The notes under the pieces: generated by a model | What the model was told of the DNA's origin: nothing | Databases searched by the model: none | Seen by the model: the letters and a program-made list of their open reading frames with translations, nothing else | Virus record (IMG/VR): IMGVR_UViG_3300011242_000004 | DNA: 64,000 bases | Source of the DNA: an uncultured virus (IMG/VR IMGVR_UViG_3300011242_000004) | Taxonomy: Duplodnaviria > Heunggongvirae > Uroviricota > Caudoviricetes | Strand: one strand, 5' to 3' | In this document: positions 6,601 through 25,715 of the stretch, one piece after another | Layout: each line of letters begins with the position of its first letter | Position numbering within the stretch: position 1 is the stretch's first letter | Made by a program: the position numbers and the translations under genes

Positions 6601-9600
6601 TTCAACAAGCTACCTTCCATCCCTGCATACTTCGCAAAGACTTCTGGAATCAAAGTGGAAATCCCTCCAGCGTAGATGCCCGGTGCTCCTTCAGGGGTCG
6701 TGGTCGCATATGCTTTCCGCCATTGACTCATGACATTATTGACGTATCCATTCCCCGGTGCGAGACGGCGTGGCGTCACCGATTTCTCTTCTGAAGATTT
6801 TTCTTTCTTTGGAAGAACTTCTTTGTCTTGCCCAGCGACTCCGTATTGCCAGACCATCCATTCTAAGTTCCGTGACTTGAAGCGAAGGTCGTTTTGTTTT
6901 GAAGCTTTGATGTAGTGCTTATGCAAGAGTGCCAATGATTGGTCTACATTGTATTTCCAGTCATAGAACAATCGTTCTGCTTGGTCTTTGTCTTTGACGA
7001 TATCTAATGGATACCCCATGAGTCCTGCCCGCCATCCTTGTGAAAGAACAGGCTTTCCTGCTGGGTTGAAGACTTCCCAACGTGAATGCAAGAGCATGAT
7101 GGCTTTGATGATACCAGAGAGACGGTGAATCGGAATCTTGACGACACCCCATTCATCTTTTCCTTCAATCGGTTGTAAACCATCTTCTCGTGTCCAGCGT
7201 GTACTGTTCAAGAGGTTCGTGACGTTATCAAGGTCAGCATTCTTTTCTCCGTTCGGAGAATCCACCTTCTTCATCTTTTTCCAATCCAAATCGAATTTGT
7301 CCCAGTCCATGATGCTTTCATAGAGCTTGTTGACCGAACCATTGAATGATTCATCATCTCCGAAGTTGACGTAATGGAAGTTCCCTTTCTTGGAAATCTT
7401 TCCTGAAGAAGCATAGAAGTATTTCATTTGGACGTCAGGACTGTTTAAGATACTACCTTCTAACCAATCGCTGTTCCGTGTTCCTGAAACTTGTTGGATG
7501 ATGACTTCCTCGTCGAGCTTTGTCATCTTCAGCATGCCTTTACCAAAGACATTGACAATCTTTTTCATGACATAGAACCAGATGTCGGCTTCGCTAGGAT
7601 TTTTCTTATTACTCTTTGCCCAATCTTCATATTCTTTTTTACTTTTCTTACTGTTCCCAGAATACTTCTTCCACTTCTCATAGCTTGGTGGAGTATGATA
7701 AGGGGCTTTTGACTTTCCATCTTCTTTGACATAGTCAGCGACGTCGCCTGTCAATTCAACGTTTGCCATTTTTGCCAACGAGTTTTCGCCTTTTTCTTTC
7801 TTGTTTCCTTTTTTCTCGTCTTTGTCTTTCCATGTTAAATCCGATGGAACCATTTCAACGGTTTTATCCGTGATGGAAAAGGCGCTATTGAAATCACTCG
7901 ATAACTCTGAATCCAAGAATCCTTTACTCTTTGTCGTCGTTCCTTCCTTTGCTCCTGTGTTGTCATACGTGATGACGCTGAAACCTGTCTTGTCTTCAAT
8001 CTCTTCCTTGATGAATTGTTGTAATGTATTACTCGAATTGATATAGAAGTCAGGGTCGACAAAGTATTGCTTTTGATTGTTCTTGTATTCTTTGATACCT
8101 GTTTTCAAGATATCGTTTTTTAAGACATCATTGAGTTCATCGAATGTTGGCAGTTCTAAGTCAGGGTAGACTTCCATCGAACGCATCCGGTATTCAAGGA
8201 CGGCAAAATCTTTTTCTTTCGAATAGTTTTTAACGTACCGGTCATTCAGTTTGGTATCGCCCATGACCGCTGAGACGCCTTGTAAGCGTTCTAAACGACG
8301 TTGTGTACGGTTGAATCCACAGAGTGTCATCATGATTTGGAAGCGTCCCGGGGACCCCGGTACCGTATCAATGCTAATGTTTTCTGGCATGACAGATTTA
8401 ACACCCATCAAACGTAAGATGGAGTTCTCGACGTCCATGAACCCAGAAACAATCCCTTGACGATACTGACGGTTATACCGTTCAACCAGTAACATCATGT
8501 TGTTGACGGCACGTACCGTTTCTTCTGTTCCGTCAAACATCAATTGAATGTATGGGTCTTGTCCTCCTAGGTATTGCAATGTCGGGGAATCCAGCAGTTC
8601 CACTTGCATCGAAGAGAATTGATTTTCATAGATGACGGACATGCCCGTTGGTAATAAATCAGGTATGTCGAACGGCACCATCTTCACCGATTCTTCCGTT
8701 GAGTTGACGATTTCAACGAGTGCTTGGTAGCGTTCCTCGTAGTCATTGATTTCATCTAAAACGTTTTGTTCTTCTTCTGTGACGTTCGCTAAGATTTTTC
8801 GGTTCTTTAATGTCGAAGGAATGACAAGGTAACCGGTGCCATCTGCTCGTTTAAACGGGGCTCCATCTTTATAGAGTACATAACGAGAATCAAACTTCTT
8901 ATAATTCTCACTGTCTCCGAATGCCATCATGAAGACGCCTTCGGCTTCCTTGCCTTCTTTTTCCCATGCTTCCATGAAACTAGGCATCTTCTCGAAGTGC
9001 TCCATGAATTTGCTCCACTCGAAATATTCTTTTGAGACGAAGAATGAATTCTGAACACCTTTCTCCCAGTTTGGAGTAGACCCTTCATAAATCGTGTCAA
9101 AGGCTTCTTTAGACCAACCACTTCCGTTCGGGTTGATGACTTGGTTGATACCAAATAGAGTTCCTCTGTTTTTAATAACTTCGGTATAGCGTTTGTATTG
9201 ACCTAAAATCTTCTGGCTTCGTTTCCCGTCTTCCATACGTTTACCGGCTTCACTTGTTTTCTTTTTCGCTTGTTCCCGGTATTCGTCTGGTGGTGTCATT
9301 TTATTGACTTTGCTAATGGCATCTTGACGGAACGACAATTTGTTTTCGTCGGCGACGAAGAACTGGAAATCATTTGAGACCCGATTAATCGGTTCGAGGT
9401 ATACCCGTCCCGGCAATTCATCTTCTCGAATCGGTTGCATTGCTTGTTGGTAATACCAACGGAACAACGGATAGTTCATGACCGAAGATAAGCTTGGTTC
9501 TGGCAACATGAATGCTTCAACTTCAAACTTTGATAACGTCAATGTCGCTTTCAACGATTCAGGGAAATCTTCAACAGTTTCAATCTTTAAGTTATGTAAC

Positions 9601-11282
9601 GCTACATTATGAATATTCAAAGTCGTATTGATGTAATGGTTATCAATCGGAAGGAACGGCGCTTTCTTGAATTGAGCAATCAATGTCCGCAATCCATCCA
9701 TATGGTAGTAGTACTTGACGCCATCAATCTCGTAAGCTTCTTCTTGTCTTCCATTGATGTCATCCATCCCGTGGAAATAGAGGTCTAACGTCAATGTCGT
9801 ATTCGCACTGCCGACACCTTTCATCATCGAGCTTTGTGTCCGAAGGGTTTTAATCTTTTCGATGTTGCCCATCCGTGCCATCGAAATCGAAAGCGGAGGA
9901 ACATCTAGTAAAACGTCACCAATCCGTACTTTATGGATGTAATCGAATGGTTCTTCGAGTGCATTTTCGTCATCAGACAATTTAACGGATTTGCTATAAA
10001 TTTTACCCTCTAGTACCCGGTCATCGTTGGGTACGACAAAATCCAATGCATTTGACACTTGTTCTTCATACCGCATCGCAAACATGTTTTCATCCAAAGA
10101 ATCTTTTTCTTTGTTCGGTGAGGTATTGTCGACATCACTTGGTTCTTTGTAATCTTTAGTGACTGGTTCCGTATATCCGACTTCAGCTCCCCAACCGCCT
10201 GTGTTAATACCATTGTCCGTCTGGTTTGGAGCATTGAACAAATCGTGTTGGAACAACGGCAGACGAGCGTCTTTCGAATATCGTTTTCCCAGTAATGTTT
10301 TGTTGATGTTTTTCCCTTTGCTATTTGGCTTCGTCATCTCAGCAAGGAACTTATCAACATCTTTAATCTTTGTACTGACTTGATAAAGCGTTCCTAGTGG
10401 GCGCTGACCATTACCAGAATCGGCTAAGGCTTTGTTCGTTTTCTTATTATACTGAAGAGCAATGATGACGAAAGCTTTTGAAGTCCCGGGTGTAATCATG
10501 TTCATTGTCGTATGTTTCGCTTCTTCTGCTACATCGAAGACGACATCGACGGTCACATCCCACATTGCCGCAAGCTCACTGTTTTCTTTGGCGCCGTACC
10601 CACCATCATAATCCTTTTTCGTTTCAGGACTATCAATCCCTAGGAAACGAACTGTGATTTCTTCGCCGACATCCATGAAGTATTTACCGACCATCTTCCC
10701 ACGCATCCGTTCATGCAGTGCTAGGATTTCAATGTCAGCCGTATCTCCATCGACGACTTTCTTTACTTCGCCATAGACAATGAATTGTTCTGGACCTGTT
10801 GTAATCGTTTCTTCTTCAGGAGCACTTGCGCCGCCTCCACCGCCGCCATCGTTGACGAGAGACATCAGTCCCATTACAGGTGCTTGTGGCGTTGAAACGA
10901 ATCCTTCTCCTGTGAATCCTTCAGAGAATGGGATGACTTCATCGACACTGAATTCTCGTGGTGTCACCTTCGAACGAAGAATCGTATTCAAGGTACGAGC
11001 CGTGACTTCAACAAGCCCCATTTGTTCTCCGATATACCGCACCATCGCTAGTCGTTTTGTTCCGTCTGGTATCATACTCATACCATATTCAAATGGATAT
11101 CCTTTAATATGTGGTTCTAGATGACTCAGTACCTGACGCAAACGGGGACCAGCGGGTGTTTGCCCGTTAGTCCCGATGCTTGTTGCGGTCAGTAGTTCGC
11201 CATTTAGAAGCATCACCAATCGCCATGCACTGTCTTCTGATGGCTTTTGAATTGATACAATCAACGCTTCAGTTGCGTTCAT
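3663..11282 (-). CDS. Giant virion protein (2539 aa): SNase-like nuclease, degenerate SLT, hydrophobic segment and C-terminal baseplate hub-like region
   Basis: VKKVVDGDT...VRFLGIDSPET (thermonuclease); IKAIMLLHS..GLMG..YNV (SLT-like); IGDPTVKPHD...VKSVTHHFSVDTGFVTSI (gp27/gpD hub-like end). Confidence 0.65.
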   Translation of the reverse strand: MNATEALIVSIQKPSEDSAWRLVMLLNGELLTATSIGTNGQTPAGPRLRQVLSHLEPHIKGYPFEYGMSMIPDGTKRLAMVRYIGEQMGLVEVTARTLNTILRSKVTPREFSVDEVIPFSEGFTGEGFVSTPQAPVMGLMSLVNDGGGGGGASAPEEETITTGPEQFIVYGEVKKVVDGDTADIEILALHERMRGKMVGKYFMDVGEEITVRFLGIDSPETKKDYDGGYGAKENSELAAMWDVTVDVVFDVAEEAKHTTMNMITPGTSKAFVIIALQYNKKTNKALADSGNGQRPLGTLYQVSTKIKDVDKFLAEMTKPNSKGKNINKTLLGKRYSKDARLPLFQHDLFNAPNQTDNGINTGGWGAEVGYTEPVTKDYKEPSDVDNTSPNKEKDSLDENMFAMRYEEQVSNALDFVVPNDDRVLEGKIYSKSVKLSDDENALEEPFDYIHKVRIGDVLLDVPPLSISMARMGNIEKIKTLRTQSSMMKGVGSANTTLTLDLYFHGMDDINGRQEEAYEIDGVKYYYHMDGLRTLIAQFKKAPFLPIDNHYINTTLNIHNVALHNLKIETVEDFPESLKATLTLSKFEVEAFMLPEPSLSSVMNYPLFRWYYQQAMQPIREDELPGRVYLEPINRVSNDFQFFVADENKLSFRQDAISKVNKMTPPDEYREQAKKKTSEAGKRMEDGKRSQKILGQYKRYTEVIKNRGTLFGINQVINPNGSGWSKEAFDTIYEGSTPNWEKGVQNSFFVSKEYFEWSKFMEHFEKMPSFMEAWEKEGKEAEGVFMMAFGDSENYKKFDSRYVLYKDGAPFKRADGTGYLVIPSTLKNRKILANVTEEEQNVLDEINDYEERYQALVEIVNSTEESVKMVPFDIPDLLPTGMSVIYENQFSSMQVELLDSPTLQYLGGQDPYIQLMFDGTEETVRAVNNMMLLVERYNRQYRQGIVSGFMDVENSILRLMGVKSVMPENISIDTVPGSPGRFQIMMTLCGFNRTQRRLERLQGVSAVMGDTKLNDRYVKNYSKEKDFAVLEYRMRSMEVYPDLELPTFDELNDVLKNDILKTGIKEYKNNQKQYFVDPDFYINSSNTLQQFIKEEIEDKTGFSVITYDNTGAKEGTTTKSKGFLDSELSSDFNSAFSITDKTVEMVPSDLTWKDKDEKKGNKKEKGENSLAKMANVELTGDVADYVKEDGKSKAPYHTPPSYEKWKKYSGNSKKSKKEYEDWAKSNKKNPSEADIWFYVMKKIVNVFGKGMLKMTKLDEEVIIQQVSGTRNSDWLEGSILNSPDVQMKYFYASSGKISKKGNFHYVNFGDDESFNGSVNKLYESIMDWDKFDLDWKKMKKVDSPNGEKNADLDNVTNLLNSTRWTREDGLQPIEGKDEWGVVKIPIHRLSGIIKAIMLLHSRWEVFNPAGKPVLSQGWRAGLMGYPLDIVKDKDQAERLFYDWKYNVDQSLALLHKHYIKASKQNDLRFKSRNLEWMVWQYGVAGQDKEVLPKKEKSSEEKSVTPRRLAPGNGYVNNVMSQWRKAYATTTPEGAPGIYAGGISTLIPEVFAKYAGMEGSLLKAFEGDKKSMIDLMINDLYYPLNIYKMQKSNDSLVDKYDDAKMKKKKQEARNQLQGMPAQKVQVAFFNHLGELKSKMEEVDKESLWEWGAWAAGGVLAVIGGALLGGPLGAAIALGVFAIGAGTAGVLDMATNSFSSRTNEVVDAYTDMTEQGDANANNRLVNRLSPEETHLQMYTDMIEYDKQGRLLRAFPTFQMFIVDEGKWMANYKMWDNLYGFNAIQSIDIYRSRKIAADTATITMTNMYSNLNGRRTDIMNDKAKMPSFFSNITWSQFLLGRPSEDYVQARKELYKSMYLQTGARIHLRMGYGSNVLNLPTVFNGTITEMDTSELVTLVCQGDGLELSNMISGDPDDNNKSFLRVMEPSETIGRLLTSKGGWLRDLISAQTDGEFYKDNPLGIAHFGAPIESPSGNFIPFNRDYGEAAQNIYSSNGIGNFDQWKNEKGENVNMWDVLTDFETFSSTNIFKFAQPGDEDNIIVKYYNNTVWDILQTFAYCSSDYIAAVMPFEMRSTVFFGKPHWGVAYRYDSTYEFDSATGEWTRKYDSEHRKPYMQMHLYNSHHNIISNNIKASEEGVYTNVIVSYDGHVTPVVQADNDIRIDKQKTIVVEADIVGRFPGDPTGTLEKWTSEGQALKYGHSAVRDYMKDMYKGHLLVIGDPTVKPHDAMYMNDSMVDMSGITLVKSVTHHFSVDTGFVTSIEPDAYVTNWDMEMLHHGKMGSAFGAKVAIATSAMASTWITKKVVQRSGVYKWLMDENGKGKPFVKEQISRFHTQNALDKMLEGKDMPDDLKDLAKKLRNAKTKAEVDTHYDDIKKALDKRLETLKATGDADVEVSKLRSEVKSLKKMVRIARTGKGAAKAASVAKAGLSVVKAGSIVNPISLLATAAFTVATETLFEMWRRKKQQTQCVTIFPLQYRGGELVAGINGHQGAVYGDVPSKADKFWNASFGDDEKEDTWYEYISATMNFLAGDSKEVEQKNAYEE

Positions 11283-11302: not shown

Positions 11303-14300
11303 TTATTGGTTCATGGACTCATTCAGTTTCTGTTGAATCCATCGGTTACTAATTGTTTGCGTGTTGTCATTGATATTGACGTTCATGTCCATCTTCGTTC
11401 CAGACATTTGTTGAACCTCAGAGTTTACAATCCCAGCGAGTGCGTTATGGTCCATACCACCCATGCCACGTCCACTGATTTTTAAGATTGTGCTTTCTCC
11501 TTTAGGTGTAACCCTTGCTGTAGGTGAAGTCAACATTTGTTCCGGTGCCACGTCCACTTGTCGGGCTTCCTGTTGAGCTTCTGCTCCTTCTGGTGTTGGA
11601 CCCGAACGCATCATCGCCGATGCTCCCCAGATAGCGGCGAAACTGACTGCCATCGGAGAAGACGCCATCTTTTTGATGCCGTTAAAGACTTCGCTTGTGC
11701 CTGTCTTGACTTTACCCATCGCATCTCCCGCTGTCTCTGATAAGAATGAACCACCATTCTTCGAGATTTCATCGACGATGTTATAACGAGGACCTCCACC
11801 TAAGTCACCTTGAATCGAATCGAGCAAGTTGCTATGTTGCCCACGCTCCTTGAACGTGTTCGCAATATGCGCTTGGAAATCTTTTTTACGAGATTCGAAG
11901 TACTGTTCACCGTCTTTCATACCCTCTGTCAGAATCTCGTGGTGGCTACTTGTCGGCATGAAGGTTTCTCCGACTAAGGCACTCGCAAGTCGCTCTTCAG
12001 ATTTCATACCTGAAGACCGGTTAATCGCAAGCGCTGGGCTTTGCATCCCCCCACGTGCGGCTGTGAGCTCATGGGCTTGTCCTAATTGGTCGATACCTTC
12101 TCTTAAGATGTCTTGTTTTGAAATGGCTTGTCCATTAAAGTACTTATTTCCACCATCAAACATTCCTAAGTTTGAAAGTTCAGCATACAGCTTCTCTTGG
12201 TTTTCCGTCGTCGGGTTCTGCAAGAGACGGTAAATGTTTTCAACGTTTTCATGACGGCGTTGCATCCGTTCCCGGGCTTCAGCGTACACTTCTGCTTTTG
12301 CCATCGACGGGCTTTCAGCTTGGACTTCATTGACTAGTGTTTCAATGTTTACCTTTTTCGAAGAAATCAATTCCTGAGAAATCGTAGACCCGAAGTTTTG
12401 GACGATGAATTCATTTCGGCGTGCCGCTTGTTCATCAATCAACCCGTGGTTAACAAGTGCCTCTTGTGTCATCGAATGGAGTTCTCGCATCGATTCCCGT
12501 ACGTTATCAATCATACCGATAGAGCCTTTACCTTGACGAGCTTCCGTCGTCAGAATGTTTTCATCGATATTGACTTTGTATTTGAAGAAGTCGCTCGCTT
12601 TTTCTTCATCAAATCCTTGGGCAACCAATGTTTGGACGGTCACATCTTTCCCTTGTTGGTTCCCGACAATGATATCGTCAACACGCTTTTGAGCTGTCTT
12701 GAAATCAATGGCTTCTGCACCCTCAGAGTAGTTATGCGTCGTCATGTATGTTTTTGCTAAGTCTTCCCGGTACTCATTGATGATGGTAGCGGCTTGCTGT
12801 TCATTTCCTGATAAAGATAAGTCATGACGGTTCTTAACGACCTCGTGCCATTTCGCCGCATCCTTATCTTTATAGTGCGTTAGCATTCCGTTGATAACGT
12901 CACCATCGGTATCCCCTGCCATGACCTTCAATGTACCAACGGAAATGAGTGCCCGCCGGTCATCGTTTGCCATGTTGCCATCGACAACAAATCGTGTTGC
13001 TTGCATCGTCGAGTCATTGATGGTCGGATAACGGTTGGCATTTCCATACAGTGACATATTCTTTCCTTCCACATTGTGTGTTAAATCATCGAGAATAACA
13101 CTATGTAGGTTGTCGCCATGTTGCTCTATCATCGTTTGGGCTTCTTTTCCATAAATAGCTTGGGCGATGTTTTTCTCGTTCCCTTCAATCATTTCACTCA
13201 TACGGTTACGAGACATATAAACCGTGCTTTCTTTATACGGTCCGGTGTTTTTCCATTCGCCGTTTTCCATCGTAAAGTTCTCAAATGGGTTGACGGTCTG
13301 AACACGGAACTGAGCAGACATGTCCGCTTTTCCGACCATGAGTTTATTGATAAGTCCACCATCTCGTGCACTACTTGCAAACGTTGTCGTTTCTTGTTGA
13401 AGCGCTGTTACGCTCGCTTCGACATTTTGCATGATTTGTTGTTTGTGTTTTGCAAGCTCTTCTCCTTGGAGTGTTCCTTTTCCTAGGTTTTCAAACTCTT
13501 TTAAGTTGCGGTAAAGACCTAATTGTTTCTTTTGGATTTCAAGCATCATCGGCGCGGATTCATCCAGACGAGATAGTTTCGATGTATCAACGAGTTGAAC
13601 GAAACGGTTTTCGCCGAACTCTTCTGGTAACTTCATGTAACTGTTCCCTGAAGTAATCGAACCTAACTGTTTGTCTTCTCCATTGACTTTAACGGTACTG
13701 AGTTTATGACTCATGATGGTACCAGCATGGTCTTCAGCGATGAATGCCATATCCTTGGCTGTAATCTTACCTGTCTTGTCTAAGATTTTTGAATCAGCGT
13801 AATTGACACCACCGACATCATAGACACTGTTTACATCGTCAGCAACTGTTTTCCCAGAGAAGTCGATGACGGTATCTCCTGCTTTTGGCATATTATTGCC
13901 TTGCATTCCTGAGATGATTTCTCCAAAGATTTCTTTAGCAGGTTCACGAGAAGTTGAACTTGTATACAATTCATTTTGAAGCCATTTTGAATAGTCGGCA
14001 CCACCGGCAACGACGTCCCGTACTTCTCCGTTCACATGTTCCCCGTAGATGCTCTTGATGACATTCATCTCTTTCTTCCCGATACGCATCTTTTGACCAG
14101 TTGATTCATAACTGTAGATATCGTGTTTCCCGATACCATCGTTGACGATTTCAAATCCAGCTTCACTCCGGCGATTGAATCCTGTTTCTCGTCCCATCCG
14201 TTCATCGAATGCTAAGACTCGTTCTTTGCTTAGGTTTTGTGCATCGTATCCATTCTTATTCACGATGTTTCCATTCATGATGACGGCTCCATCTTGAATC

Positions 14301-17300
14301 GTATATTGCCCTTTCATCTTCAGTTCATCATCTAGTGCTGGGCGAAGCAAATCACCCATGACTTTGTCTTCTAGGCCGTTTTTGGAAAGGTCAGCAACAG
14401 TTAGACGACCACCATCATGTCCATGTCGCACAAGCGATTGATTGATGGCTTCTGAACGAGTTGTTGGGTCTGCTAGCAATTGCTTACGAATTTCGTCACT
14501 GTAAGTGTCAACAACAGAACGAAGGTATGTACCCCCCATGTTCTTTTTAACTTCTGGTTCAGGCATTAAGACTTTGATGTCATCAGACTTCGTGATATGT
14601 GCCATCAAGTCACTATCAATGAATTGCATCGTATGCCGTCCGCCACCTAGCGTAATGGCTTTAAAGCTTTGATTCGCTTTGTCGTATTCGTTAATAAGAA
14701 CACGTCCACTGTCTGCATCAAATCCTGTGATTTCAAAGTTCTGATGCCAGTTCTTATACTCCCCGGTCTCAATCGCCTTGAATTCGCCTTTGTCAGCGCT
14801 CATGATGCTTCCGACGGTGATGCGGTAGTTTCCGTTTTTCTCTTGGACCATACCCGCTTCTTGCAATTCTTTAAAACTAATCCCTTGTCCCGATTCGACT
14901 TTTAAGGCGCCTTCGGTTGTGAACAACCCTTTGTCTTCCATTAGCTTTTGAAGTTTTGGATTCAAGCGTCCTTGGATACCGACATCTACTGATTTCTGTT
15001 TCATTGTTCCTAGTGCTTCTTGAATCGAACTAGAGGCAAGCACCATCCCGTCATGCATCGACATCGAACTCACACGTTTTAGACGTGTTGCCATGTCTTC
15101 TAATTTTGCTAACTCTTTTGCTTCATCAGGAGATAGGTTCGTCTTCCGGCGTAGTTCATCAATCTTGCCATCGAGTTCTCGTTGAGCGGATTTAACAAGC
15201 GTGTTGACTTGCAATTCATTCGAAAGCCCTACACGGACATTCAAGTGACTGAATTCTTCTCCTTGAATCGCTTTAGCGGCATCCGTCGTCGTCAGCCCTT
15301 TCATCATCCGGTATGTTTGCGATTCATTGTTTGTGCTCGCAACACGTGACCGTACCATTTCCATTTCATTTGCATCTCCAGCAAGAGCCCGGTAATTCAA
15401 TGCTTTATTCAAGTTTTCCCGGGCTGTCGGGTTGAATTCACCAAACGCAAAGTATTGGCGGTTATCAACGAGCGACCGAATTCCGTTTCGAGCTTGTGCA
15501 TCCGATAAACCATGGTGCGACAATTGTCCTTTTCCATTCATGAAATTTTCGTTCATAAATCCTTCAATGTCCCGATGGAAATAGTTCTGTTCATCCAAGC
15601 CCATCGCTTGGAAGAAGCTGAGGTTTTCTTTGCCCATGCGTTCTTTGATGCGGTCTTGGTTGCTCAATTGGAACTTACTGCCTCGTGCGTTATACCAATG
15701 CTCTGCCATACCCGTGACGTCGATTTGCATCGCCCGGTTATGGTTGGCTAAGCGAGAGTTCCGTGCAAACTCTTTTTCAGGGTTTGCCGTGAACAAGGCA
15801 TGGTTCGTCACAAGTCCTTCTTGAATCCGTTGAATCTTACTATTGATGCGACCATGGACATCTAGGATATTCATCTCTCCACCAATTTCTTCACTTCGTT
15901 TCATTGCATTGTTCAATCGATTGGAGTGGCTTCCCATTTCATTGAAGAATTCATCGACAACGTTCGTGACTTGGAAGGTATTGTTTCTTCCGATTCCAGC
16001 ACTAAGTCGTCCGACGAATTGCCGTCCTCCGACTTCAATCGTGCCATCAGGGTTCATCATCGGAATTTCGAAGTGAGCCACTTGGTTTGACTTAATGGCA
16101 TCAGGAAGTGACATGTTCATCATCGACGATGCATGTTCTTTTTTCGATAACATCATCATCATTTTTCCCGTGTCATTATTGTAGTCGACACGCACCCCAA
16201 AGTTTTGTGCATAACTATTCGCTAAGTTGATGACTTTACTTTCAAACGATTGACCTGCTTTAATGTCTCTGCTTTGCCCAACAATCGAACTGATTTGTTG
16301 ACGGGGTAAGTTAATCAATCCACTCTTTTCTAATGCAAGACGTGCGCCTTTATTATGCTGTTCAATCTTTTCTTTGACCGTCTTTGGTACATTCAAAAAT
16401 ACATTGTCCACGACATTATATTTCGAGTACCCCCGGCTTTGTTCAATTGAAGACTGCACGACTTGTTCAAAGAATAGTTTCCCGTGTTGTCCATTGACCC
16501 CTGTCGTCATCAATTCATGTCCGACGCTTCCGATTGGTGATTTAGAGATAGCAGTTCCTTCGACATACTCTCGAATTGGTGCGGTCATCGCTTGGACTTT
16601 GGCATTGGTCCCGTTCGAAGATTTTGTTCCCACGCCCCCTTGTGCCGCCGCTGTCTGAACTTCCCGTGCAATTTTCTCGACATCATTGACCTCTAGATGT
16701 TTATGGGCATTGAAGCGGTCCATACCGATTTTTAAATATTCTTTTCGCATGTCAGCGTTGATGACACCCTTCTGTTCTAGCTGTTGTACCATTTCCAAGA
16801 ACATTTGTTTTTGTTGGCTCATTGGCACATTGCGACTCAGAATACTTTTGAGAGAGGAGATGAACGACGTTCGGTCGCTGACATTCAAATTACGGGTCTT
16901 CCCGTTCAATGTCATTTCCATCGTTTTGACACCCGGTGTCATGTACTTCTCTTTCTCACCTGTTCCCAATGCTTCCAGTTGGTCTTTGATTTTAGAAAGG
17001 GCATACGTCTCTTTGACTTTATCCCGGAAACGACCGCCCGGTTTTCCTTCTGCTGGGCGCACTGTATAATGAAAATCTTCTTTTTCAATCCGTTTGATGG
17101 CTTCATTCCAGATATCTCTTTCACTATCCAACCGTCCACGCATTCCTAGAACATTTTCTCCGTATCCTGTACCCACATGATACTTGGCATCCACGCCATC
17201 ATTGACAGCGTCTAGCGCGCTTCCTAAGGCGCTCTCGTGCAATTTAGGAGCATCCATCCCTGTCTTCGCTAACTCCGCCGCATGACGGTCGTAGGCATCA

Positions 17301-18853
17301 AGAAACGCATAGTTCTTTTTCAGACGGTCAATCCCTTTTCCTTCTTTTACATCGAACAACTTTTCATATTCCCGGCGTGCCCGGTCTTTCTCGTTCGTCT
17401 TCATTCGTTCGAGTTGACTCTGACGGGTCTTCGGGTCTTCCGTCACTTGCACTAAATTCTTTTGGAAGATGTTGGCGATATCATCAAACCTTTCCCGTAC
17501 AATCTGATGGTGATATCCTGTATCATGGTTCAACAACGTAATCCCGTATTGTTCCTTGCCTTCAATCATCATTTTTTGAACTTCGGAAACGACTTCGTAA
17601 TGGTTGTTTTTGTTCAGTGTCGCTGTGCGGAAATCCCGCGCCCGAATGAACTTGCCTTGTTTGTCTTTGTCATAGATGGCATCATATTTCCCATCTGAGC
17701 CTAGACCCCGGTTCGAATAATAGACTTGTCCCATTTCCACAGTATTTGCCGACAAACGTTTTAGTGATTGGATGGACTTCGTTTCTTTTCCATCTCGTAA
17801 CGCTTTCCCTAACAATGAAATGTTCATGTTGATATCGGCTAAGGCAAAGTGAGCTTGTTCCGACGAACGTCCTGTTAATTTTCGGTATAAGTTCCCTAAC
17901 GTCATGTTCCCGCCAAAATCTTGAAGAGGTGTTTCATAGAACGTACGGAAGAACTCTAATGTATCCAGTTGAGACCGTTGCATGTTCTGATGGAGACGGT
18001 CCAGTGCCTTGTACTGATTTGGACTATGTTTGAAACGTTCTTTCGTCGCACTCAATACATCGAGCATCGCTCGTTGGTCAAAGTTATGGACATTGTGTCC
18101 CGCTAAGACTGTTTTACTATCAACGAGTTTGTTGACGGCGAATAATGCCTTTTCAATTGGTGTCGCTTGTTTTAAATTATTAAATCCTCGTTCAATTTGA
18201 GAAATACCTTCTTTTGTACCTAATGCAACATCTTTAAATTTCGTTCCGTGACTTTCAAGGTATGTAAATCCATTTTCTTTTCGAATCTTTGCTCCTGTTC
18301 CGTATTGACTGATGTCAGCGAGACTTCGGCGCATATCATCGGATAAGCCTGTCCATCCCTTATCATGCAACATGTCAATGGCAGATTGAATCCGTTCCAT
18401 CGACTTTTGGTTCGGTGAAATTAAGAGCGACAACTGCTCCCCTGTTTCTTTCATGTCTGGACCTCGTACCGTCTTCATGGCAATCTCTGTGACGCTGAAG
18501 AAATCGGCGATGCCATTTTTCCCACGACGTACATCATTCGCCCGCATGAACTCAGGAGACCCAATCGTCTCAATATCCCAGACTCCGATTTTTGTATTTT
18601 TCCCGATACCTAATAACGCTTCATACGTCCCTTGTCCTGATGTGAACTTATCATGGGCATACCCTTCCATGTTTGCCCAAATCTTTTTAGCAGAAGTTGT
18701 CACTTCCCCTGTGTTCAGAATCCGTGCAACATCATCGGATGCTTTCAAGTATTCGGGGTCTTCCTCGAACCGGTTCTTGTTTTGTCCGATTCCTAAAATC
18801 GTATGAGAGTCTCCTGTTAAGGCATCTATTCGTTTGATGTTATCGTCTGCCAT
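11303..18853 (-). CDS. Putative virion RNA polymerase (two-barrel, DxDGD) with N-terminal DEDDh 3'-5' exonuclease
   Basis: Exo motifs WDIET, AGHNVHNFD and HFALAD. RNAP motifs NRYPT (13022-13036) and GDTDGD (DTDGD at 12899-12913). Start set at MADD (18853), after GGAGG. Confidence 0.7.
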   Translation of the reverse strand: MADDNIKRIDALTGDSHTILGIGQNKNRFEEDPEYLKASDDVARILNTGEVTTSAKKIWANMEGYAHDKFTSGQGTYEALLGIGKNTKIGVWDIETIGSPEFMRANDVRRGKNGIADFFSVTEIAMKTVRGPDMKETGEQLSLLISPNQKSMERIQSAIDMLHDKGWTGLSDDMRRSLADISQYGTGAKIRKENGFTYLESHGTKFKDVALGTKEGISQIERGFNNLKQATPIEKALFAVNKLVDSKTVLAGHNVHNFDQRAMLDVLSATKERFKHSPNQYKALDRLHQNMQRSQLDTLEFFRTFYETPLQDFGGNMTLGNLYRKLTGRSSEQAHFALADINMNISLLGKALRDGKETKSIQSLKRLSANTVEMGQVYYSNRGLGSDGKYDAIYDKDKQGKFIRARDFRTATLNKNNHYEVVSEVQKMMIEGKEQYGITLLNHDTGYHHQIVRERFDDIANIFQKNLVQVTEDPKTRQSQLERMKTNEKDRARREYEKLFDVKEGKGIDRLKKNYAFLDAYDRHAAELAKTGMDAPKLHESALGSALDAVNDGVDAKYHVGTGYGENVLGMRGRLDSERDIWNEAIKRIEKEDFHYTVRPAEGKPGGRFRDKVKETYALSKIKDQLEALGTGEKEKYMTPGVKTMEMTLNGKTRNLNVSDRTSFISSLKSILSRNVPMSQQKQMFLEMVQQLEQKGVINADMRKEYLKIGMDRFNAHKHLEVNDVEKIAREVQTAAAQGGVGTKSSNGTNAKVQAMTAPIREYVEGTAISKSPIGSVGHELMTTGVNGQHGKLFFEQVVQSSIEQSRGYSKYNVVDNVFLNVPKTVKEKIEQHNKGARLALEKSGLINLPRQQISSIVGQSRDIKAGQSFESKVINLANSYAQNFGVRVDYNNDTGKMMMMLSKKEHASSMMNMSLPDAIKSNQVAHFEIPMMNPDGTIEVGGRQFVGRLSAGIGRNNTFQVTNVVDEFFNEMGSHSNRLNNAMKRSEEIGGEMNILDVHGRINSKIQRIQEGLVTNHALFTANPEKEFARNSRLANHNRAMQIDVTGMAEHWYNARGSKFQLSNQDRIKERMGKENLSFFQAMGLDEQNYFHRDIEGFMNENFMNGKGQLSHHGLSDAQARNGIRSLVDNRQYFAFGEFNPTARENLNKALNYRALAGDANEMEMVRSRVASTNNESQTYRMMKGLTTTDAAKAIQGEEFSHLNVRVGLSNELQVNTLVKSAQRELDGKIDELRRKTNLSPDEAKELAKLEDMATRLKRVSSMSMHDGMVLASSSIQEALGTMKQKSVDVGIQGRLNPKLQKLMEDKGLFTTEGALKVESGQGISFKELQEAGMVQEKNGNYRITVGSIMSADKGEFKAIETGEYKNWHQNFEITGFDADSGRVLINEYDKANQSFKAITLGGGRHTMQFIDSDLMAHITKSDDIKVLMPEPEVKKNMGGTYLRSVVDTYSDEIRKQLLADPTTRSEAINQSLVRHGHDGGRLTVADLSKNGLEDKVMGDLLRPALDDELKMKGQYTIQDGAVIMNGNIVNKNGYDAQNLSKERVLAFDERMGRETGFNRRSEAGFEIVNDGIGKHDIYSYESTGQKMRIGKKEMNVIKSIYGEHVNGEVRDVVAGGADYSKWLQNELYTSSTSREPAKEIFGEIISGMQGNNMPKAGDTVIDFSGKTVADDVNSVYDVGGVNYADSKILDKTGKITAKDMAFIAEDHAGTIMSHKLSTVKVNGEDKQLGSITSGNSYMKLPEEFGENRFVQLVDTSKLSRLDESAPMMLEIQKKQLGLYRNLKEFENLGKGTLQGEELAKHKQQIMQNVEASVTALQQETTTFASSARDGGLINKLMVGKADMSAQFRVQTVNPFENFTMENGEWKNTGPYKESTVYMSRNRMSEMIEGNEKNIAQAIYGKEAQTMIEQHGDNLHSVILDDLTHNVEGKNMSLYGNANRYPTINDSTMQATRFVVDGNMANDDRRALISVGTLKVMAGDTDGDVINGMLTHYKDKDAAKWHEVVKNRHDLSLSGNEQQAATIINEYREDLAKTYMTTHNYSEGAEAIDFKTAQKRVDDIIVGNQQGKDVTVQTLVAQGFDEEKASDFFKYKVNIDENILTTEARQGKGSIGMIDNVRESMRELHSMTQEALVNHGLIDEQAARRNEFIVQNFGSTISQELISSKKVNIETLVNEVQAESPSMAKAEVYAEARERMQRRHENVENIYRLLQNPTTENQEKLYAELSNLGMFDGGNKYFNGQAISKQDILREGIDQLGQAHELTAARGGMQSPALAINRSSGMKSEERLASALVGETFMPTSSHHEILTEGMKDGEQYFESRKKDFQAHIANTFKERGQHSNLLDSIQGDLGGGPRYNIVDEISKNGGSFLSETAGDAMGKVKTGTSEVFNGIKKMASSPMAVSFAAIWGASAMMRSGPTPEGAEAQQEARQVDVAPEQMLTSPTARVTPKGESTILKISGRGMGGMDHNALAGIVNSEVQQMSGTKMDMNVNINDNTQTISNRWIQQKLNESMNQ

Positions 18854-18870
18854 CTTTGTTCCCTCCATAT

Positions 18871-18905: not shown

Positions 18906-21900
18906 TCAACTCAGTAAGTTTTGCCAATTGCTTTGAATTTCATTCCATACTTCTTTCGTGCGGTCAAGTTGAATGTCCATCTGGGTTTTGATTCCCGGCG
19001 GTCCTTCAATCTTCGACATCGTGATTTGAACATTCTTCAAACCTGCACCTTTTAAGACTTTCGTCAAGCGACCGACGTCAAGTCCTCCACCATGACCTTG
19101 AACCGGAATCGCACCTAGTCGTGTTTCTTCCGCCCGTTGTTCATCGTCATCCCAGTAATTGGCTTCTGTCAAATCAATGCCTTCGTTTTTCATAACTTTG
19201 ATTTTGACCGCATCCAGACTTTGACCCGGGTCCCATCCTGCCCAATCCTCATCTGGCAAGTTATGCGAACCAAAGTAGCTTTGAAGGCTTTCCTTCTTAT
19301 CTGCTTTCATTCCCCATGACTTCTGATAGATGGCTCGTTGGTATTTTGGAACCAACCGAAGAATCTTTTCCCGGTCTTTCGGTGACGCTTCCATGAACTT
19401 CGTAAAGTATTCCCGGTCTTTCGCTGGTAACGCTTTGTAGATGTTCTGGAAGTTGATGTTTTCATCGGCTGAATAAATCGTTGATTCATACTCTTGCTTG
19501 TAACGAAGAGCAAGTGCGCCCAGTGGACCTAAGTCTTGCGTTGGTCGTGTGTCATTGATTTCTTTCAATGTATCATTATGGTCTTTCAGTTCGGCACGTA
19601 ACGCCTCAATATCACCATAACCACTTTTCTTCTGGATGCTCAACCTTTTTTTCTGTTCTTGGATGTATTTCTTTAATCCTTTGTTTTCTTTTCCTTGTTC
19701 GTCTTGGTTCTCAAGAAGTGCGTCCAAGTCAACACCTTCTCGTTCAAGAGCCAATTGCTTGGTCTTCTCATACAGCCCTTTGAACTTGACGTACTTCAGT
19801 TTGTCGAAGTATTCATCGACTTCTCGTTCTTTTCGACGACGGGCTGGAATCCAGTTGCTATCATCACCGATGACGTCCTTCCCAATCTCACCGACAGTCT
19901 TAGCAGTTGCAATCAAACCAACGCTCATTCCTAGACCCATTCCGATGATACCCGGTGCCCGGTTCCGACCGAACATGTATCCGATACCATATCCTTCGGC
20001 GGCGGCAATCAACGGGTTTCGTGATGCCATCGTATCAATCATCGGCTGAATCCAGCCAGACCATGGGCTTGCCCAGTCACGCCATGCTTTTCCATACAGC
20101 TCTCGTTCATAAGACTCTACAGGAGAACGGACTTGCAAGAACTTATCGGCGAAGACCCCAGCAATCGGAATCTTCGGCAGAATGTCACGGACGACGGTGT
20201 CATACATTTTACCGACCGTGATTTGGTCTTTTGAATAAAGAGCGGCGGTAGCGACCTGAGACCCATCATCTCGAATCGTGACTTTGTCTTTCGACTCTGC
20301 CCGGTTCGCTAACATGAAGTTAAGGTTTGACCCTTTGTTCGTTAGATAGAACGGGTTTCCTTCTTCGTTATGTTGTGTGTAAACGACCGCCCGCATCGTC
20401 GTCATCAAGTCTTTGCGTTCCCGATTGAGCGGGTCGCCATCCAGTCCAATCTTCAGGGTTGCTCCCTCATAGATGAACTGACGGACATAATCGACGGTTT
20501 CTTGGTCACTGTTTTTGACTTGGACACCCGCTAACTTAATCGGGTTCGCTTCGCCGTATTCCCGTGTGACGAACGTATTCGCATCCAAAACTTTTGTGAC
20601 TGTAACTTTTTCTTCTTTTAATTCAACATCCCGGAACTTCCGGTCATACAAGTGTTTCTTTTCTTTCTTCTGTTTGACCTGTTCTCGAATCGTTCGGTAT
20701 TCTTCATTTTGTTCTTCTGTCAATTCACCGTTTCCGTTTAACAACGAAACTTGTTTCTTTGCCATGCGGTATTGGTCAGAGTATGGTGCGACATCTGCTA
20801 GAATCCGTAAGCGGTCAAGAGCAGAGTAGTTCCCGTCAGCATCCTTACGCACATTGTAGAGCTTCTCGTATGCATCTCCCGGCAAACGCATTAAACCAGC
20901 GTTCACACGTGAATACGGGTCACCGTGTTTGAAGTCCGTAAAGTATTCTGCACCGGGCATCCATTCAGGCATCGTGTTTCGAATCGGGTTATAGTAGTTT
21001 TTGTTCGGGTCACGGGCTAAGTAACGACGAGCAATCTCTGAGATGTCTCCACCTAATCCACCTAGTTCCATGTCCCAGAACTGACGGTTGTAGGAACTCA
21101 TGAGACCAGAATCTTGTAACGTGTTCCCACGTCCGCTTTCCTCGAACCCAATCCCAGACTTAGCGGCAAAACCGAAGATACCTGCTATCTCCGATGTATT
21201 GTACCAAACATCTCGCATCGTTCCGTATTGAAGATTGAATGGATTGTCTCGATTAATCGCATCCCCTAGATTGTAGAGCGCATTCGGGTCACGCGTAGAT
21301 TCTAGACTGGAGATACCTCGATTGATAGGACTTGTTGCTTCGAGAAGTCCCATATTCTCTGCTGTCAGCTGTGTTCGTGTGGTTTCGGCACCGTACCCAC
21401 CGCCACCGGCGACAGACGTCCCAGCGCCTTCACCAGAGCGTCCACCAGAGGGACTGTATCCGCCACTAGCTTGACCTGAAGCATAAGCGTCTCCACCATA
21501 AAAGTCTTGTTCGCCTTCGACTTGTTCATCGAAGTCTAGACTGACTTGGTCATCAATGCGTTTGATACCACCGGAAGGCATCATCTCAACAGTTGCTCCG
21601 GCATTCGCTGTTGCATACGCATTTGCTAATCGTTGGTTGTACGCTTCAATATATTCCCGGTGTGCTTTTTTCAAACGAGGGTCTTCTGTCCGTGGTTTTA
21701 GAATCCGACCGACCGTATCATCAATCAATGGACCAACAAGCGGAATGTTGTCGAGTTCCGCGAATCCACCAGTAACAGCGAACGGACGTTCATCTTTCAA
21801 CTTGTTTTCATAGTGTTTGCTATCGGTAATGAAGTGTTTAATCGGAGCGAACGGATGCGTTAACGTCGGCATCCAATGGTTTGCCCAGTATTCCGATTCT

Positions 21901-24900: not shown

Positions 24901-25091
24901 ACAATTTCTCCTGCTAGATTAAAACGACGGCTCTTAATGAGCCCTTTCATGATAGGAGCACCGATGGCATGTCGGTTGCGAATCAAACCATACCCAACGG
25001 CACCAGCACCAATAACCTTCAGTCCACCAATGGCCGTTTGTGCTACTTCTTCTCTTTTCTGTTGATTCTGCATGTCCCGCATATCTGCCAT
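18906..25091 (-). CDS. Giant virion protein (2061 aa) in the tape-measure position, with a degenerate SNase-like OB domain
   Basis: Directly after tube and chaperone genes; Gly-rich hydrophobic segments; KVTVTKVLDANTF...IKLAGV resembles an SNase N-terminus without catalytic residues. Confidence 0.5.
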   Translation of the reverse strand: MADMRDMQNQQKREEVAQTAIGGLKVIGAGAVGYGLIRNRHAIGAPIMKGLIKSRRFNLAGEIVGEVFDRGSVYSSALGSKPGFMSMLKAQRDPDEFERRMRLAFRAQQAARNQPNQLADTPLMPRRVMEHLSSKKSLQAEAVKRTRIDVNLKQLKADPTFAPHFETGLEELLLKSNLLSRSNPSEREVVDFVQKNVTKKAKEVQNHFINMEGMGQQERSDFVEKLFKTVDENNHRIRYTQKNGETNLNKAMSLEERRSVDASYQVMQKANFEALMRGLHKDKHSGFMQESMARNGYHQLTLEDVMNDDGGLKARYSPLQREGKTRKPMDFVEEIVNNAQQLGYDMNEVKQMVVDPAIFLNKDTLHIADLTNMRRSMDKSVDFIHQNFQVPFLNFNPIDLIQYGAQKASREAPLFRMFKRGDMSAFASKKLADGTNAYELMDENYMRRNNGAAMTPFKKDYIYAGGASYDLDALTEQLKSGKNIKDLSLKSGLIEDDLILVSSEFGVPKRFAESVAGLTQHDGDVNILHHIWGGRQENESVFGRLMRAATKNNNPDYGPNLIKDLKNRPNEYLEETYNKMNSLVSRSTRGMSHDTGFFWGDELGQTIKKQYNVDVDFHQLRDSDEYVLNVAQDLVSAMNRQGRHKVDFETEQLIGGVQGQIAQIYKKYTDDPALFLRQKTTIPDKALISNEMFNIAAIGYDRMVSQTDDLRKSIEQLGLVNFSRSSGKSVKEFMGEAYSKGKIGQAEIQETMDLVNLSHLQKFQNQIGQKEYTASADALESFRDYFGEGERHMDMLGTLKRKDPWWSVGPGEDVVDHYGKDVHFHMIKKHRGMLESINRQLAEDGSEGAVDKTLSIAQGGANYFGHLFAGRKNIEDITAGTMVPWFFASRLDDAMAQLGLGLSNSLRGSATSIVMNQWGRRIVLPYVAYQQGMYLDGLLGDKVSDTAADGYVNMQMDTASVKEKLGINAIGRSWSRVFAGTDQMAEWIPSKAFNFVTGGAFTDFRSPEELQEYYESGEDAIRKGRYWGIGSTTPWMGGKIERWQPNWYRRMKSDYKFSENGYGSESEYWANHWMPTLTHPFAPIKHFITDSKHYENKLKDERPFAVTGGFAELDNIPLVGPLIDDTVGRILKPRTEDPRLKKAHREYIEAYNQRLANAYATANAGATVEMMPSGGIKRIDDQVSLDFDEQVEGEQDFYGGDAYASGQASGGYSPSGGRSGEGAGTSVAGGGGYGAETTRTQLTAENMGLLEATSPINRGISSLESTRDPNALYNLGDAINRDNPFNLQYGTMRDVWYNTSEIAGIFGFAAKSGIGFEESGRGNTLQDSGLMSSYNRQFWDMELGGLGGDISEIARRYLARDPNKNYYNPIRNTMPEWMPGAEYFTDFKHGDPYSRVNAGLMRLPGDAYEKLYNVRKDADGNYSALDRLRILADVAPYSDQYRMAKKQVSLLNGNGELTEEQNEEYRTIREQVKQKKEKKHLYDRKFRDVELKEEKVTVTKVLDANTFVTREYGEANPIKLAGVQVKNSDQETVDYVRQFIYEGATLKIGLDGDPLNRERKDLMTTMRAVVYTQHNEEGNPFYLTNKGSNLNFMLANRAESKDKVTIRDDGSQVATAALYSKDQITVGKMYDTVVRDILPKIPIAGVFADKFLQVRSPVESYERELYGKAWRDWASPWSGWIQPMIDTMASRNPLIAAAEGYGIGYMFGRNRAPGIIGMGLGMSVGLIATAKTVGEIGKDVIGDDSNWIPARRRKEREVDEYFDKLKYVKFKGLYEKTKQLALEREGVDLDALLENQDEQGKENKGLKKYIQEQKKRLSIQKKSGYGDIEALRAELKDHNDTLKEINDTRPTQDLGPLGALALRYKQEYESTIYSADENINFQNIYKALPAKDREYFTKFMEASPKDREKILRLVPKYQRAIYQKSWGMKADKKESLQSYFGSHNLPDEDWAGWDPGQSLDAVKIKVMKNEGIDLTEANYWDDDEQRAEETRLGAIPVQGHGGGLDVGRLTKVLKGAGLKNVQITMSKIEGPPGIKTQMDIQLDRTKEVWNEIQSNWQNLLS

Positions 25092-25698: not shown

Positions 25699-25715
25699 GA
25701 TTTTCCTCCTCATAG

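Follow-up and report, generated by a model that had tools for sequence, protein, structure and literature searches.

The gB gene and its sequence motifs

At the locus examined in the current study, the tail operon of a contractile-tailed phage encodes a giant protein with the motifs of both a 3'-5' exonuclease and an RNA polymerase (RNAP). The gene, here called gB, lies on the minus strand at 11303..18853 of a 64,000 nucleotide (nt) stretch of DNA from an uncultured virus of the Caudoviricetes (IMG/VR record IMGVR_UViG_3300011242_000004), and the whole of this stretch is referred to as the window. A preliminary description, made from the sequence alone, had taken the product for a packaged and ejected virion RNAP fused to an intact DEDDh exonuclease. 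The results presented here favor a tail-delivered early-transcription enzyme of a jumbo myovirus resembling the Bacillus thuringiensis phage 0305phi8-36, and this reading as a whole is given a probability of about 0.7.

A single minus-strand open frame makes up gB; it covers 11303..18868 and 2521 amino acids (aa) when read from the first ATG. The ATG at 18853, which had also been chosen in the preliminary description, is most likely the true start, because a Shine-Dalgarno sequence (GGAGGG, 18861-18866) is located 7 nt 5' of it, the corresponding methionine (M6) is invariant in 29/29 aligned relatives, and the closest relative is 2516 aa long. Residue numbers in this text count from 18868; subtraction of 5 gives the numbering from 18853. 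All of the motifs reported earlier were recovered at their positions, including the spacing of about 40 aa between NRYPT and DTDGD (D1986 lies 41 residues past N1945):

11303..18853, minus strand: gB, 2516 aa from the ATG at 18853, predicted DEDDh exonuclease and single-chain two-barrel RNAP
18566-18580, minus strand: WDIET, aa 97-101, Exo I motif (D98/E100)
18077-18100, minus strand: GHNVHNFD, aa 257-264, Exo II motif (N259/D264)
17834-17851, minus strand: HFALAD, aa 340-345, Exo III motif (H340/D345)
aa 1272-1277, minus strand: HDGMVL, in the predicted beta-like lobe
14633-14665, minus strand: FKAITLGGGRH, aa 1402-1412, in the predicted beta-like lobe
aa 1433-1445, minus strand: VLMPEPEVKKNMG
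13022-13036, minus strand: NRYPT, aa 1945-1949, in the predicted beta'-like barrel
12899-12922, minus strand: MAGDTDGD, aa 1983-1990, with the DTDGD metal loop

The RNA polymerase module

Residues 1190-2300 were modelled with AlphaFold2 from a 39-row alignment (model residue 1 is aa 1190), with a mean predicted local distance difference test (pLDDT) score of 83.6 and a predicted template modelling (pTM) score of 0.79. The model was compared with 48,161 PDB representatives by VIA-align, a structure search that is independent of Foldseek and in which Z-values of 7-8 are common background. QDE-1 ranked first (7y7p_A, Z 12.7, root-mean-square deviation (rmsd) 3.6, 308 residues aligned over model residues 5-1094, both lobes included), and RNAP chains stood above the background and covered whole lobes. 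The predicted parts of the module are as follows:

14099..15301, minus strand: beta/Rpb2-like lobe, aa 1190-1590, with HDGMVL and residues K1403, G1409, R1411 and T1413 (FKAITLGGGRHT, 14633-14665)
11969..13906, minus strand: beta'/Rpb1-like lobe, aa ~1655-2300, with the catalytic double-psi barrel and then long helices
12878-13321, minus strand: catalytic double-psi barrel, aa ~1850-1997, with NRYPT and DTDGD inside

Beta-type chains aligned with model residues 1-401/402, namely those of African swine fever virus (8q3b_B, Z 10.7), the phage phiKZ non-virion RNAP (nvRNAP; 7ogp_C, 10.6), Xanthomonas (6j9e_C, 10.4) and Pol I (4c2m_B, 10.2). The earlier suggestion that HDGMVL and FKAITLGGGRH belong to a second, beta-like barrel is borne out by this alignment of aa 1190-1590 with beta/Rpb2 chains. 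Beta'-type chains aligned with model residues 466-1111 at Z 10.6-11.5 (Pol II 9mu7_A, 11.5; Sulfolobus 2pmz_A, 11.5; vaccinia 6rfl_A, 11.2; M. tuberculosis 6edt_D, 10.7), that is, with the lobe holding NRYPT and DTDGD. Lone double-psi beta-barrels (DPBBs; Z ~8), including a designed one (7dww_A, Z 8.1) and the N-domains of CDC48/VAT, were placed on model residues 661-808, which correspond to aa 1850-1997. The modelled region thus agrees with the single-chain two-barrel RNAP that had been proposed from the motifs.

Single-chain RNAPs of phages also matched the model, with Z 9.8 for P74 gp62, 9.3/9.1 for P23-45 gp96 and 6.1 for phi14:2 gp66. The comparison with phi14:2 gp66, QDE-1 and the beta/beta' chains, which the preliminary description had put forward as a check, therefore gave Z-values of 6.1, 12.7 and 10.2-11.5, respectively. 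In a Foldseek search of the PDB, 74 matches reached E<=1e-3, and every one of the 50 best matches listed was an RNAP entry; the best were the nvRNAPs of phage AR9 (7s01_d, E 3.2e-5) and phiKZ (8que_A).

In a PDB profile search with the gB family, Exonuclease I and a beta' piece of the phiKZ nvRNAP were the top two matches; both lay exactly on the motifs, and both were sub-threshold. The NRYPT...DTDGD stretch was aligned with R-N-P-T...A-D-F-D-G-D of phiKZ gp55 (E 0.38, which is not significant alone). gB had no match to PF05183 (RdRP, YonO/QDE-1) at E<=0.1, and none among the PHROGs.

On the model, the two lobes and the DxDGD loop place gB in the two-barrel RNAP superfamily. The Z-values for multisubunit enzymes and for the QDE-1/YonO clade are level within about 1, and place gB no nearer to one than to the other.

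The same polymerase fold was observed in other viral proteins of the BFVD collection: A0A7R7G2L5_2 (E 1.8e-34, TM-score 0.64), a 'Minor tail protein' of Siphoviridae sp. ctnpt50 (E 1.6e-16), two proteins of the Acinetobacter jumbo phage vB_AbaM_ME3 (1.7e-7 and 3e-4) and one protein of Microcystis phage MaMV-DC (9.8e-5). None of the matches from ctnpt50, vB_AbaM_ME3 and MaMV-DC is annotated as a polymerase.

The exonuclease module

Residues 1-530 were modelled with AlphaFold2 from a 34-row alignment (pLDDT 82.9, with most 10-residue blocks within aa 90-300 above 90). The model, the VIA-align matches and the motifs together point to the following domains:

17741..18613, minus strand: predicted DnaQ-like DEDDh 3'-5' exonuclease domain, aa ~86-376
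17444..17731, minus strand: predicted small beta-rich domain, aa ~380-475, with strands at 382-458; the alignment with 1fxx_A runs through model residue 462

VIA-align found 69 chains at Z>=8, and the 50 best listed were nearly all DnaQ-like (DEDD-type) exonucleases or exonuclease domains of DNA polymerases. Sixteen chains of DEDDh type scored between Z 15.6 and 13.2, among them:

PolC exonuclease, 9qpc_A: Z 15.6
S. aureus DinG N-terminal exonuclease, 9ii8_A: Z 15.4
Pol III epsilon, 1j53_A: Z 14.8, 170/174 residues aligned, rmsd 2.5
3'hExo, 1w0h_A: Z 14.4
RNase T, 3ngy_A: Z 14.3
TREX1, 3u3y_B: Z 13.7
Cap18, 7t2s_A: Z 13.7
Exonuclease I, 1fxx_A: Z 13.5

The comparison of the N-terminal region with DnaQ and RNase T that had been proposed earlier is thus represented by Pol III epsilon (14.8) and RNase T (14.3). 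Foldseek gave TREX1, RNase T, ExoI and REXO2 at probability 1.00. Hsp70 entries among the Foldseek matches were disregarded (probability 0.30-0.85, very low TM-scores).

The Pfam family PF00929 (RNase_T) matched aa 232-352 below its gathering threshold (15.1 vs 24 bits, E 0.036), and it is the fold together with the motifs that assigns the modelled domain to the DnaQ-like superfamily. Taken with the polymerase module, the models indicate that gB almost certainly combines the fold of a two-barrel polymerase with that of a DEDDh exonuclease, both with intact sites.

Conservation in the gB family

Among 50,697 phage records, tblastn with gB matched only KLEB27-3 (a B. australimaris phage; 26% identity, 98% coverage), WH1 and Edson, three jumbo phages of Bacillus (217-234 kb). 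Eleven relatives came from a word-indexed search, and an exhaustive HMMER search of 1.84 billion representatives with aa 1250-2100 gave 31 proteins, 25 of them 2366-2564 aa and six 609-1809 aa in length. In a local profile search the short relatives began inside the protein and kept the C-terminus without the exonuclease; being either contig-edge fragments or true short forms, they were excluded from the conservation counts. Two scans of bacterial genomes by a few short peptide patterns found no relatives, which is weak evidence of absence.

The conservation alignment consisted of 29 full-length relatives with 78% to 18% identity to gB, and it contained only 50 invariant columns. Residues D98, E100, N259, D264, H340 and D345 of the exonuclease were invariant in 29/29 sequences, as were K1403, G1409, R1946, P1948, D1986, D1988, G1989 and D1990 of the polymerase. 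R1411 (conserved in at least 90%) and T1413 were near-invariant. The motifs exceed chance, because they are invariant down to 18% identity in a family with only 50 such columns, and because the folds match the expected enzymes. Conservation of DTDGD in homologs, on which the preliminary description had staked its polymerase assignment, is complete at D1986, D1988, G1989 and D1990.

The invariant K1403 and the conserved R1411 lie within the beta-aligned lobe, and are candidate counterparts of the phosphate-contacting basic residues of beta. The proposal of an intact N-terminal DEDDh exonuclease is upheld by the fold match and by the catalytic residues, all five of which are invariant; the latter argues that the exonuclease is catalytically active.

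Two other regions of gB were recognized in the same alignment:

15302..17281, minus strand: middle region, aa ~530-1189, no fold assigned, with W1058, G1143, E1151, K1155, N1158 and Y1159 conserved in the family
11306..11671, minus strand: C-terminal module, aa ~2400-2521, with a W-x-x-S-A-x-M-R-S-G-P-T-P-E-G hydrophobic patch followed by PTARVT...NVNDNTQ

The middle region had no Pfam or PHROG match, and an Atlas feature search with aa 520-1200 yielded no family (best score 0.87). The C-terminal module has many invariant columns at 2410-2512 of the 29-sequence alignment and is a candidate anchor to the hub or the tail tip.

Position of gB in the tail operon

A PHROG scan of 40 neighboring open reading frames (ORFs) revealed a minus-strand structural operon in the window, in the order terminase, portal, capsid, two sheaths, tubes, chaperonin pair, gA, gB, hub gC, M23/SLT lysin and baseplate:

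45137-46876, minus strand: terminase (PHROG)
38479-40590, minus strand: portal (PHROG)
34632-35726, minus strand: capsid protein (PHROG)
28227-29810 and 30399-31961, minus strand: two sheath paralogues (PHROG)
26223-28171, minus strand: three tube-type ORFs, matching phrog_9206
25105..26198, minus strand: two small ORFs (147 and 202 aa), the putative tail chaperonin pair by position (compare 0305phi8-36 ORF143/144 and WH1 gp098/gp097, 'tail chaperonin')
18906..25091, minus strand: gA, 2061 aa, no cysteine, 31% identity to the 0305phi8-36 virion protein ORF145, hydrophobic segment at aa ~1712-1733
3663..11282, minus strand: gC, a baseplate hub of 2539 aa that has muralytic regions and is homologous to ORF147 of 0305phi8-36, phrog_20474 at 4e-217
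2419-3597: M23 peptidase/SLT lysin, a separate ORF after gC, with a baseplate protein next

The phrog_9206 family is labelled 'major head protein' by PHROGs, and the syntenic KLEB27-3 genes are annotated as tail tube. The 202-aa ORF of the putative chaperonin pair had no family match, and no fold or family was found for gA with Pfam (on 8 aligned members), PHROGs or the PDB profile search. For gC, tblastn gave ORF147 'baseplate hub protein' at 2e-54 and the KLEB27-3 'putative baseplate protein' at E 0; a hydrophobic stretch lies at aa ~1648-1690. No mutual BLASTP match at E<=1e-2 was found among gA, gB and gC.

The RNAP-bearing gB therefore follows the chaperonin pair and gA and precedes the hub. 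In 0305phi8-36 the same positions are taken by the chaperonins ORF143/144, ORF145 (1930 aa), ORF146 (2537 aa) and the hub ORF147, with gA resembling ORF145 and gC matching ORF147 as given above. This is the tape-measure slot, since it equals that of 0305phi8-36 ORF146, a 'hypothetical tape measure protein'. The order of the giant genes gA-gB-gC is kept in 0305phi8-36, in WH1 and in 7/8 IMG/VR loci, the eighth of which (L004) ends within gB. KLEB27-3 has the same order with gA divided into two genes, and in WH1, a B. cereus phage, the chaperonins gp098/097 are followed by gp096, gp095 and gp094, all 'virion structural protein'.

The slot leads to one alternative, in which gB would be a structural relic, i.e. 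a tape measure or tail-core scaffold whose polymerase and nuclease folds are inactive. The length of gB is near that of gp146, the ORF146 product (2516 vs 2537 aa), and gp146 was assigned as tape measure from a correlation with tail length (Hardies et al. 2007, PMC2147016). However, the catalytic residues of both enzymes are invariant down to 18% identity while most columns vary, and relics would be expected to lose them. This alternative is considered very improbable.

gp146 itself (L003:9573-17186) seems to contain DEDDh-like motifs in collinear order, L-D-I-E-T at ~1223, N-V-A-D-A-D at ~1440 and H-L-A-R-A-D at ~1685 (best piece, independent E-value 4.9e-4 in an 8-sequence database). They differ from those of gB in lying mid-protein, at aa ~1206-1703. 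No D-x-D-x-D or NRxP motif and no RNAP-profile match was detected in gp146, which may thus be an exonuclease-bearing protein of the tape-measure slot without a polymerase.

Some further features of the operon were observed. In Moorella phage MTATph1 (L002:7043-14399) the gene at the gB position seems to be interrupted, with CDS0027 (1309 aa), a transposase, two small ORFs and CDS0031 in succession; the CDS0031 product matches the C-terminal module of gB (E 2e-3), and the next gene is an 'endolysin' hub homologue. The duplication of tail genes (two sheaths and three tube-type ORFs, 26223-31961) is also present in KLEB27-3. A 150-aa ORF (34105-34557, minus strand), flanked by the capsid gene and a structural gene of Ig-like type, showed weak PHROG matches to endonuclease VII and Arc-like repressors, and may be a homing-type nuclease inside the structural operon. 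The stop codon of gA and the ribosome-binding site of gB are separated by 37 nt, which contain a GC-rich hairpin (GGGAGG...CCTCCC) and then TTTTCTTT (18871-18896, minus strand); this element looks like a terminator or attenuator within the tail operon.

Possible roles of the exonuclease

The fold of the exonuclease gives no substrate call, because DNA- and RNA-specific members score level. We lean slightly towards DNA 3' ends at entry, or host nucleic acid, as the target of the exonuclease, over the editing of transcripts, because 0305phi8-36 gp146 seems to keep exonuclease motifs without an RNAP motif. If this reading of gp146 holds, the nuclease would be an older, separable tenant of the slot.

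The other option is a coupled editing polymerase, in which the DEDDh domain would remove misincorporated or backtracked 3' nucleotides in cis and replace the missing Gre/TFIIS-type factors; its extreme version would be DNA synthesis like that of the archaeal DNA polymerase PolD. Both domains lie in one chain with both sites invariant in 29/29 full-length relatives, and the best exonuclease neighbors are replicative proofreaders (PolC exonuclease, Z 15.6; Pol III epsilon, Z 14.8). PolD, moreover, is a precedent for a two-barrel core with a proofreading nuclease (PMC6355029, PMC4996933). On the other hand, ~800 residues of sequence separate the exonuclease from the RNAP, and RNase T, 3'hExo and TREX1 come to within ~1.5 Z of the scores of the proofreaders. 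The collinear exonuclease motifs that gp146 seems to have in the absence of an RNAP motif suggest an independent nuclease. An editing role is regarded as unlikely.

A candidate second RNA polymerase gene in the window

A motif scan of the plus-strand ORFs identified another RNAP candidate, in a block that is transcribed divergently from the structural operon:

54052-56847, plus strand: second RNAP candidate, 931 aa, YonO/QDE-1 (RdRP) type, with R663-Y-P665 and an S-G-A-D719-F-D721-G-D723 loop

The R-Y-P motif precedes S-G-A-D-F-D-G-D by 56 residues. Taken alone, the protein had no match in Pfam, PHROGs, PDB sequences or by tblastn of the phage collection, and PF05183 was missed at E<=0.01. Seventeen relatives were found, in which R663, P665 and S716-D723 are invariant. 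The enzyme is assigned to the YonO/QDE-1 type because PF05183 (RdRP) matches 12/17 members of its family (best 1.1e-6), and it is likely to be a non-virion polymerase. When the gB and second-RNAP families were compared by hhalign, the RYP...DxDGD stretches were paired without significance (E 0.29).

About 10 tandem units of the CTATATA(A/G)GG type with a ~14-bp period occupy the intergenic region 53133-53289, just upstream of the operon 53341-53952 / 54052-56847. Of 11 matches to CTATATARGG in the window (<=1 mismatch), 10 fall in this array, and 2.3 would be expected by chance window-wide. The array may be a set of promoters or binding sites, or an iteron-like origin. A search of IMG/VR for close relatives of the second RNAP, in which conservation of the repeat could be followed, gave distant matches only.

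Proposed virion packaging and function

Packaging and ejection of gB are suggested by its slot, by synteny with gp146 and by the GenBank labels of its relatives, which are 'structural protein' for KLEB27-3 gp034 and 'virion structural protein' for WH1 gp095, annotations of unconfirmed basis. The record of 0305phi8-36 gp146, the positional counterpart, notes that it was 'identified as virion protein by mass spectrometry'. No cysteine (Cys) occurs in gB, in gA, in any of the 34 other full-length gB relatives or in gp146, while the other 40 ORFs of the window have 71 Cys in 12,245 residues (0.58%; p ~4e-7 for gB alone). This absence fits a protein that would be stored outside the cytoplasm and threaded through the tail.

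It is proposed that gB, a polyvalent enzyme, would be produced alongside the tail proteins and incorporated into the tail at the tape-measure position, its conserved C-terminus probably lying against the hub gC. By analogy with P23-45 gp96, sheath contraction would then expel gB, unfolded or extended, ahead of or together with the DNA. After refolding, the RNAP (aa ~1190-2300, with the D1986/D1988/D1990 site) would transcribe the first phage genes without a need for the host RNAP, and the separate YonO-like RNAP (54052-56847) could take over later transcription, as in the two-polymerase relay of P23-45. The DEDDh domain, a predicted intact 3'-5' exonuclease, would, on the slight lean given above, act on DNA 3' ends at entry, either the incoming genome end or host DNA. 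The two folds, the invariant active sites, the slot of the gene and the second RNAP gene are results of the analysis; the location in the virion, the ejection, the timing, the templates and the exonuclease substrate are inferred.

Several observations weigh against this proposal. Sequence support for both domains is sub-threshold (PDB profile E 0.22-0.38; RNase_T 15.1 vs 24 bits), and the likeness of the folds cannot tell an RNA from a DNA product, or a DNA from an RNA template. The similarity between gB and gp146 is weak and limited to the last ~60 aa (hhalign E 0.0017, probability 15%; hmmsearch E 0.0065 in an 8-sequence set), apart from weak collinear exonuclease motifs. gB models as a large globular enzyme and not as an extended helical ruler; it has no transmembrane-like segment (no 19-residue Kyte-Doolittle mean >1.4) and no match to a peptidase family in Pfam or PHROGs, the membrane and peptidase domains of the gp96 type being absent. 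These latter roles may lie in gA, gC and the M23/SLT ORF. In addition, among KLEB27-3 and three complete-rated IMG/VR relatives, only one (G003) matched the profile of the second RNAP (A5) or PF05183. Either the polymerase relay cannot be general, or the profiles and first-look filters miss divergent forms.

Some of these points would also suit a gB that is not packaged at all, being a non-virion late or replication-associated polymerase/nuclease encoded by chance in the tail operon. The models show compact globular enzyme domains, and gB has no transmembrane or coiled-coil ruler features. Against this reading stand a chaperonin-hub slot that is kept in every locus examined, relatives annotated as structural proteins, a C-terminal module weakly common to the mass-spectrometry-verified gp146, and 0 Cys across 35 family members. 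A non-packaged gB is judged improbable, and tail delivery is preferred.

Comparison with known systems

The closest described system is that of the Thermus phage P23-45, whose gp96 is a tape-measure-fused virion two-barrel RNAP with gp64 as its non-virion partner (Chaban et al., Nat Commun 2024, PMC10770324); the preliminary description had correctly named gp96 as a virion RNAP. In P23-45 the pre-early genes, one of which encodes the second RNAP, are transcribed by the enzyme carried in the tail (PMC10770324). Like gB, gp96 (also in P74-26, G20c and TSP4; PDB 8H2M/8H2N) is a single-chain two-barrel RNAP with DxDGD in a giant protein of the tape-measure slot (Z 9.3/9.1), and the genome of the window likewise holds a second, separate RNAP gene. 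The differences are considerable. gp96 belongs to a siphovirus, and its chain of 5,002 aa carries the RNAP N-terminally and has membrane and metallopeptidase domains as well (PMC10770324), whereas gB comes from a contractile-tailed jumbo phage, has the predicted RNAP in its C-terminal half, and lacks a transmembrane-like segment and a peptidase, M23 being the separate ORF 2419-3597. gB also has an N-terminal DEDDh exonuclease, and none is described for gp96 in the available portion of PMC10770324. No sequence similarity between gp96 and gB was detected beyond the motifs.

In 0305phi8-36, which shares the gene order, the near-equal length and the lack of Cys in gp146, the only recognized RNAP is the separate RdRP-like orf99 (PMC2147016), and Iyer et al. 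2021, in the portion available, credit this phage only with a YonO-like enzyme. orf99 matches PF05183 at 1.1e-20, and the second RNAP of the window is of like type.

The crAss-like podovirus phi14:2 encodes another giant single-chain two-barrel RNAP, gp66, in which we know of no exonuclease domain. According to the title of its PDB entry (6VR4), gp66 is virion-packaged. The match to gB was weak (6vr4_B, Z 6.1, rmsd 5.6, 360 residues aligned; BFVD S0A2C3_2, E 4.5e-3).

QDE-1 and YonO resemble gB in having both barrels in one chain, and no other single structure matches the gB RNAP as well as QDE-1. In contrast, NRYPT...DTDGD of gB reads closer to beta' (NRxPT...DFDGD), and it is the 54052-56847 RNAP of the window that belongs with QDE-1 and YonO instead. 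The virion RNAP of coliphage N4 is comparable as one of the giant polyvalent proteins in which a polymerase is joined to other enzymatic domains and which are delivered with DNA (PMC5512222), as is proposed for gB; in the N4 type, however, a T7-like RNAP stands in place of a two-barrel enzyme and is fused to zincin peptidases (PMC5512222). Archaeal PolD, which combines a two-barrel core (DP2) with a 3'-5' exonuclease (DP1), is a functional analogy only and no kinship is claimed: it is a DNA polymerase, and its Mre11-like nuclease forms a subunit of its own, where gB has a fused DEDDh domain.

No architecture combining a two-barrel RNAP with a DnaQ-type exonuclease was found in the available portion of Iyer et al. 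2017 (PMC5512222). Among the papers listed by full-text literature searches, none described an exonuclease fused to a virion or two-barrel RNAP. In the 'Two RNAPs' sheet of Chaban et al. (PMC10770324, available portion), no 0305phi8-36-like phage is among the 8 'Bacillus phage' rows. For the P23-45-like Thermus siphoviruses, the principle of a tape-measure-slot protein that contains a two-barrel RNAP has already been published. The gB family differs from them in its jumbo myovirus lineage, the domain order, the lack of membrane and peptidase parts, the absence of detectable sequence kinship, and the fused DEDDh domain.

Implications

A bolder idea is that the exonuclease and the polymerase of gB work as one machine, or that, in the manner of PolD, DNA at the end of the incoming genome is synthesized or repaired by an injected two-barrel enzyme. 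Both versions are considered unlikely. If true, the one-machine version would represent the first cellular-type (two-barrel) RNAP with a dedicated, covalently linked 3'-5' editing nuclease, and either version would provide a tail-carried missing link between two-barrel RNA and DNA polymerases. Hidden virion polymerases may also be common, since the fold is present in several giant proteins without polymerase annotation.

Tail-delivered two-barrel RNAPs have so far been documented for one group of Thermus siphoviruses, and gB would extend them to contractile-tailed jumbo phages of Firmicutes. The idea is directly testable, because three phages of the family (KLEB27-3, WH1 and Edson) are cultured. 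The question that gB poses for this family is whether an injected polymerase needs a nuclease for preparing the template, for attacking nucleic acid of the host or for editing what it synthesizes.

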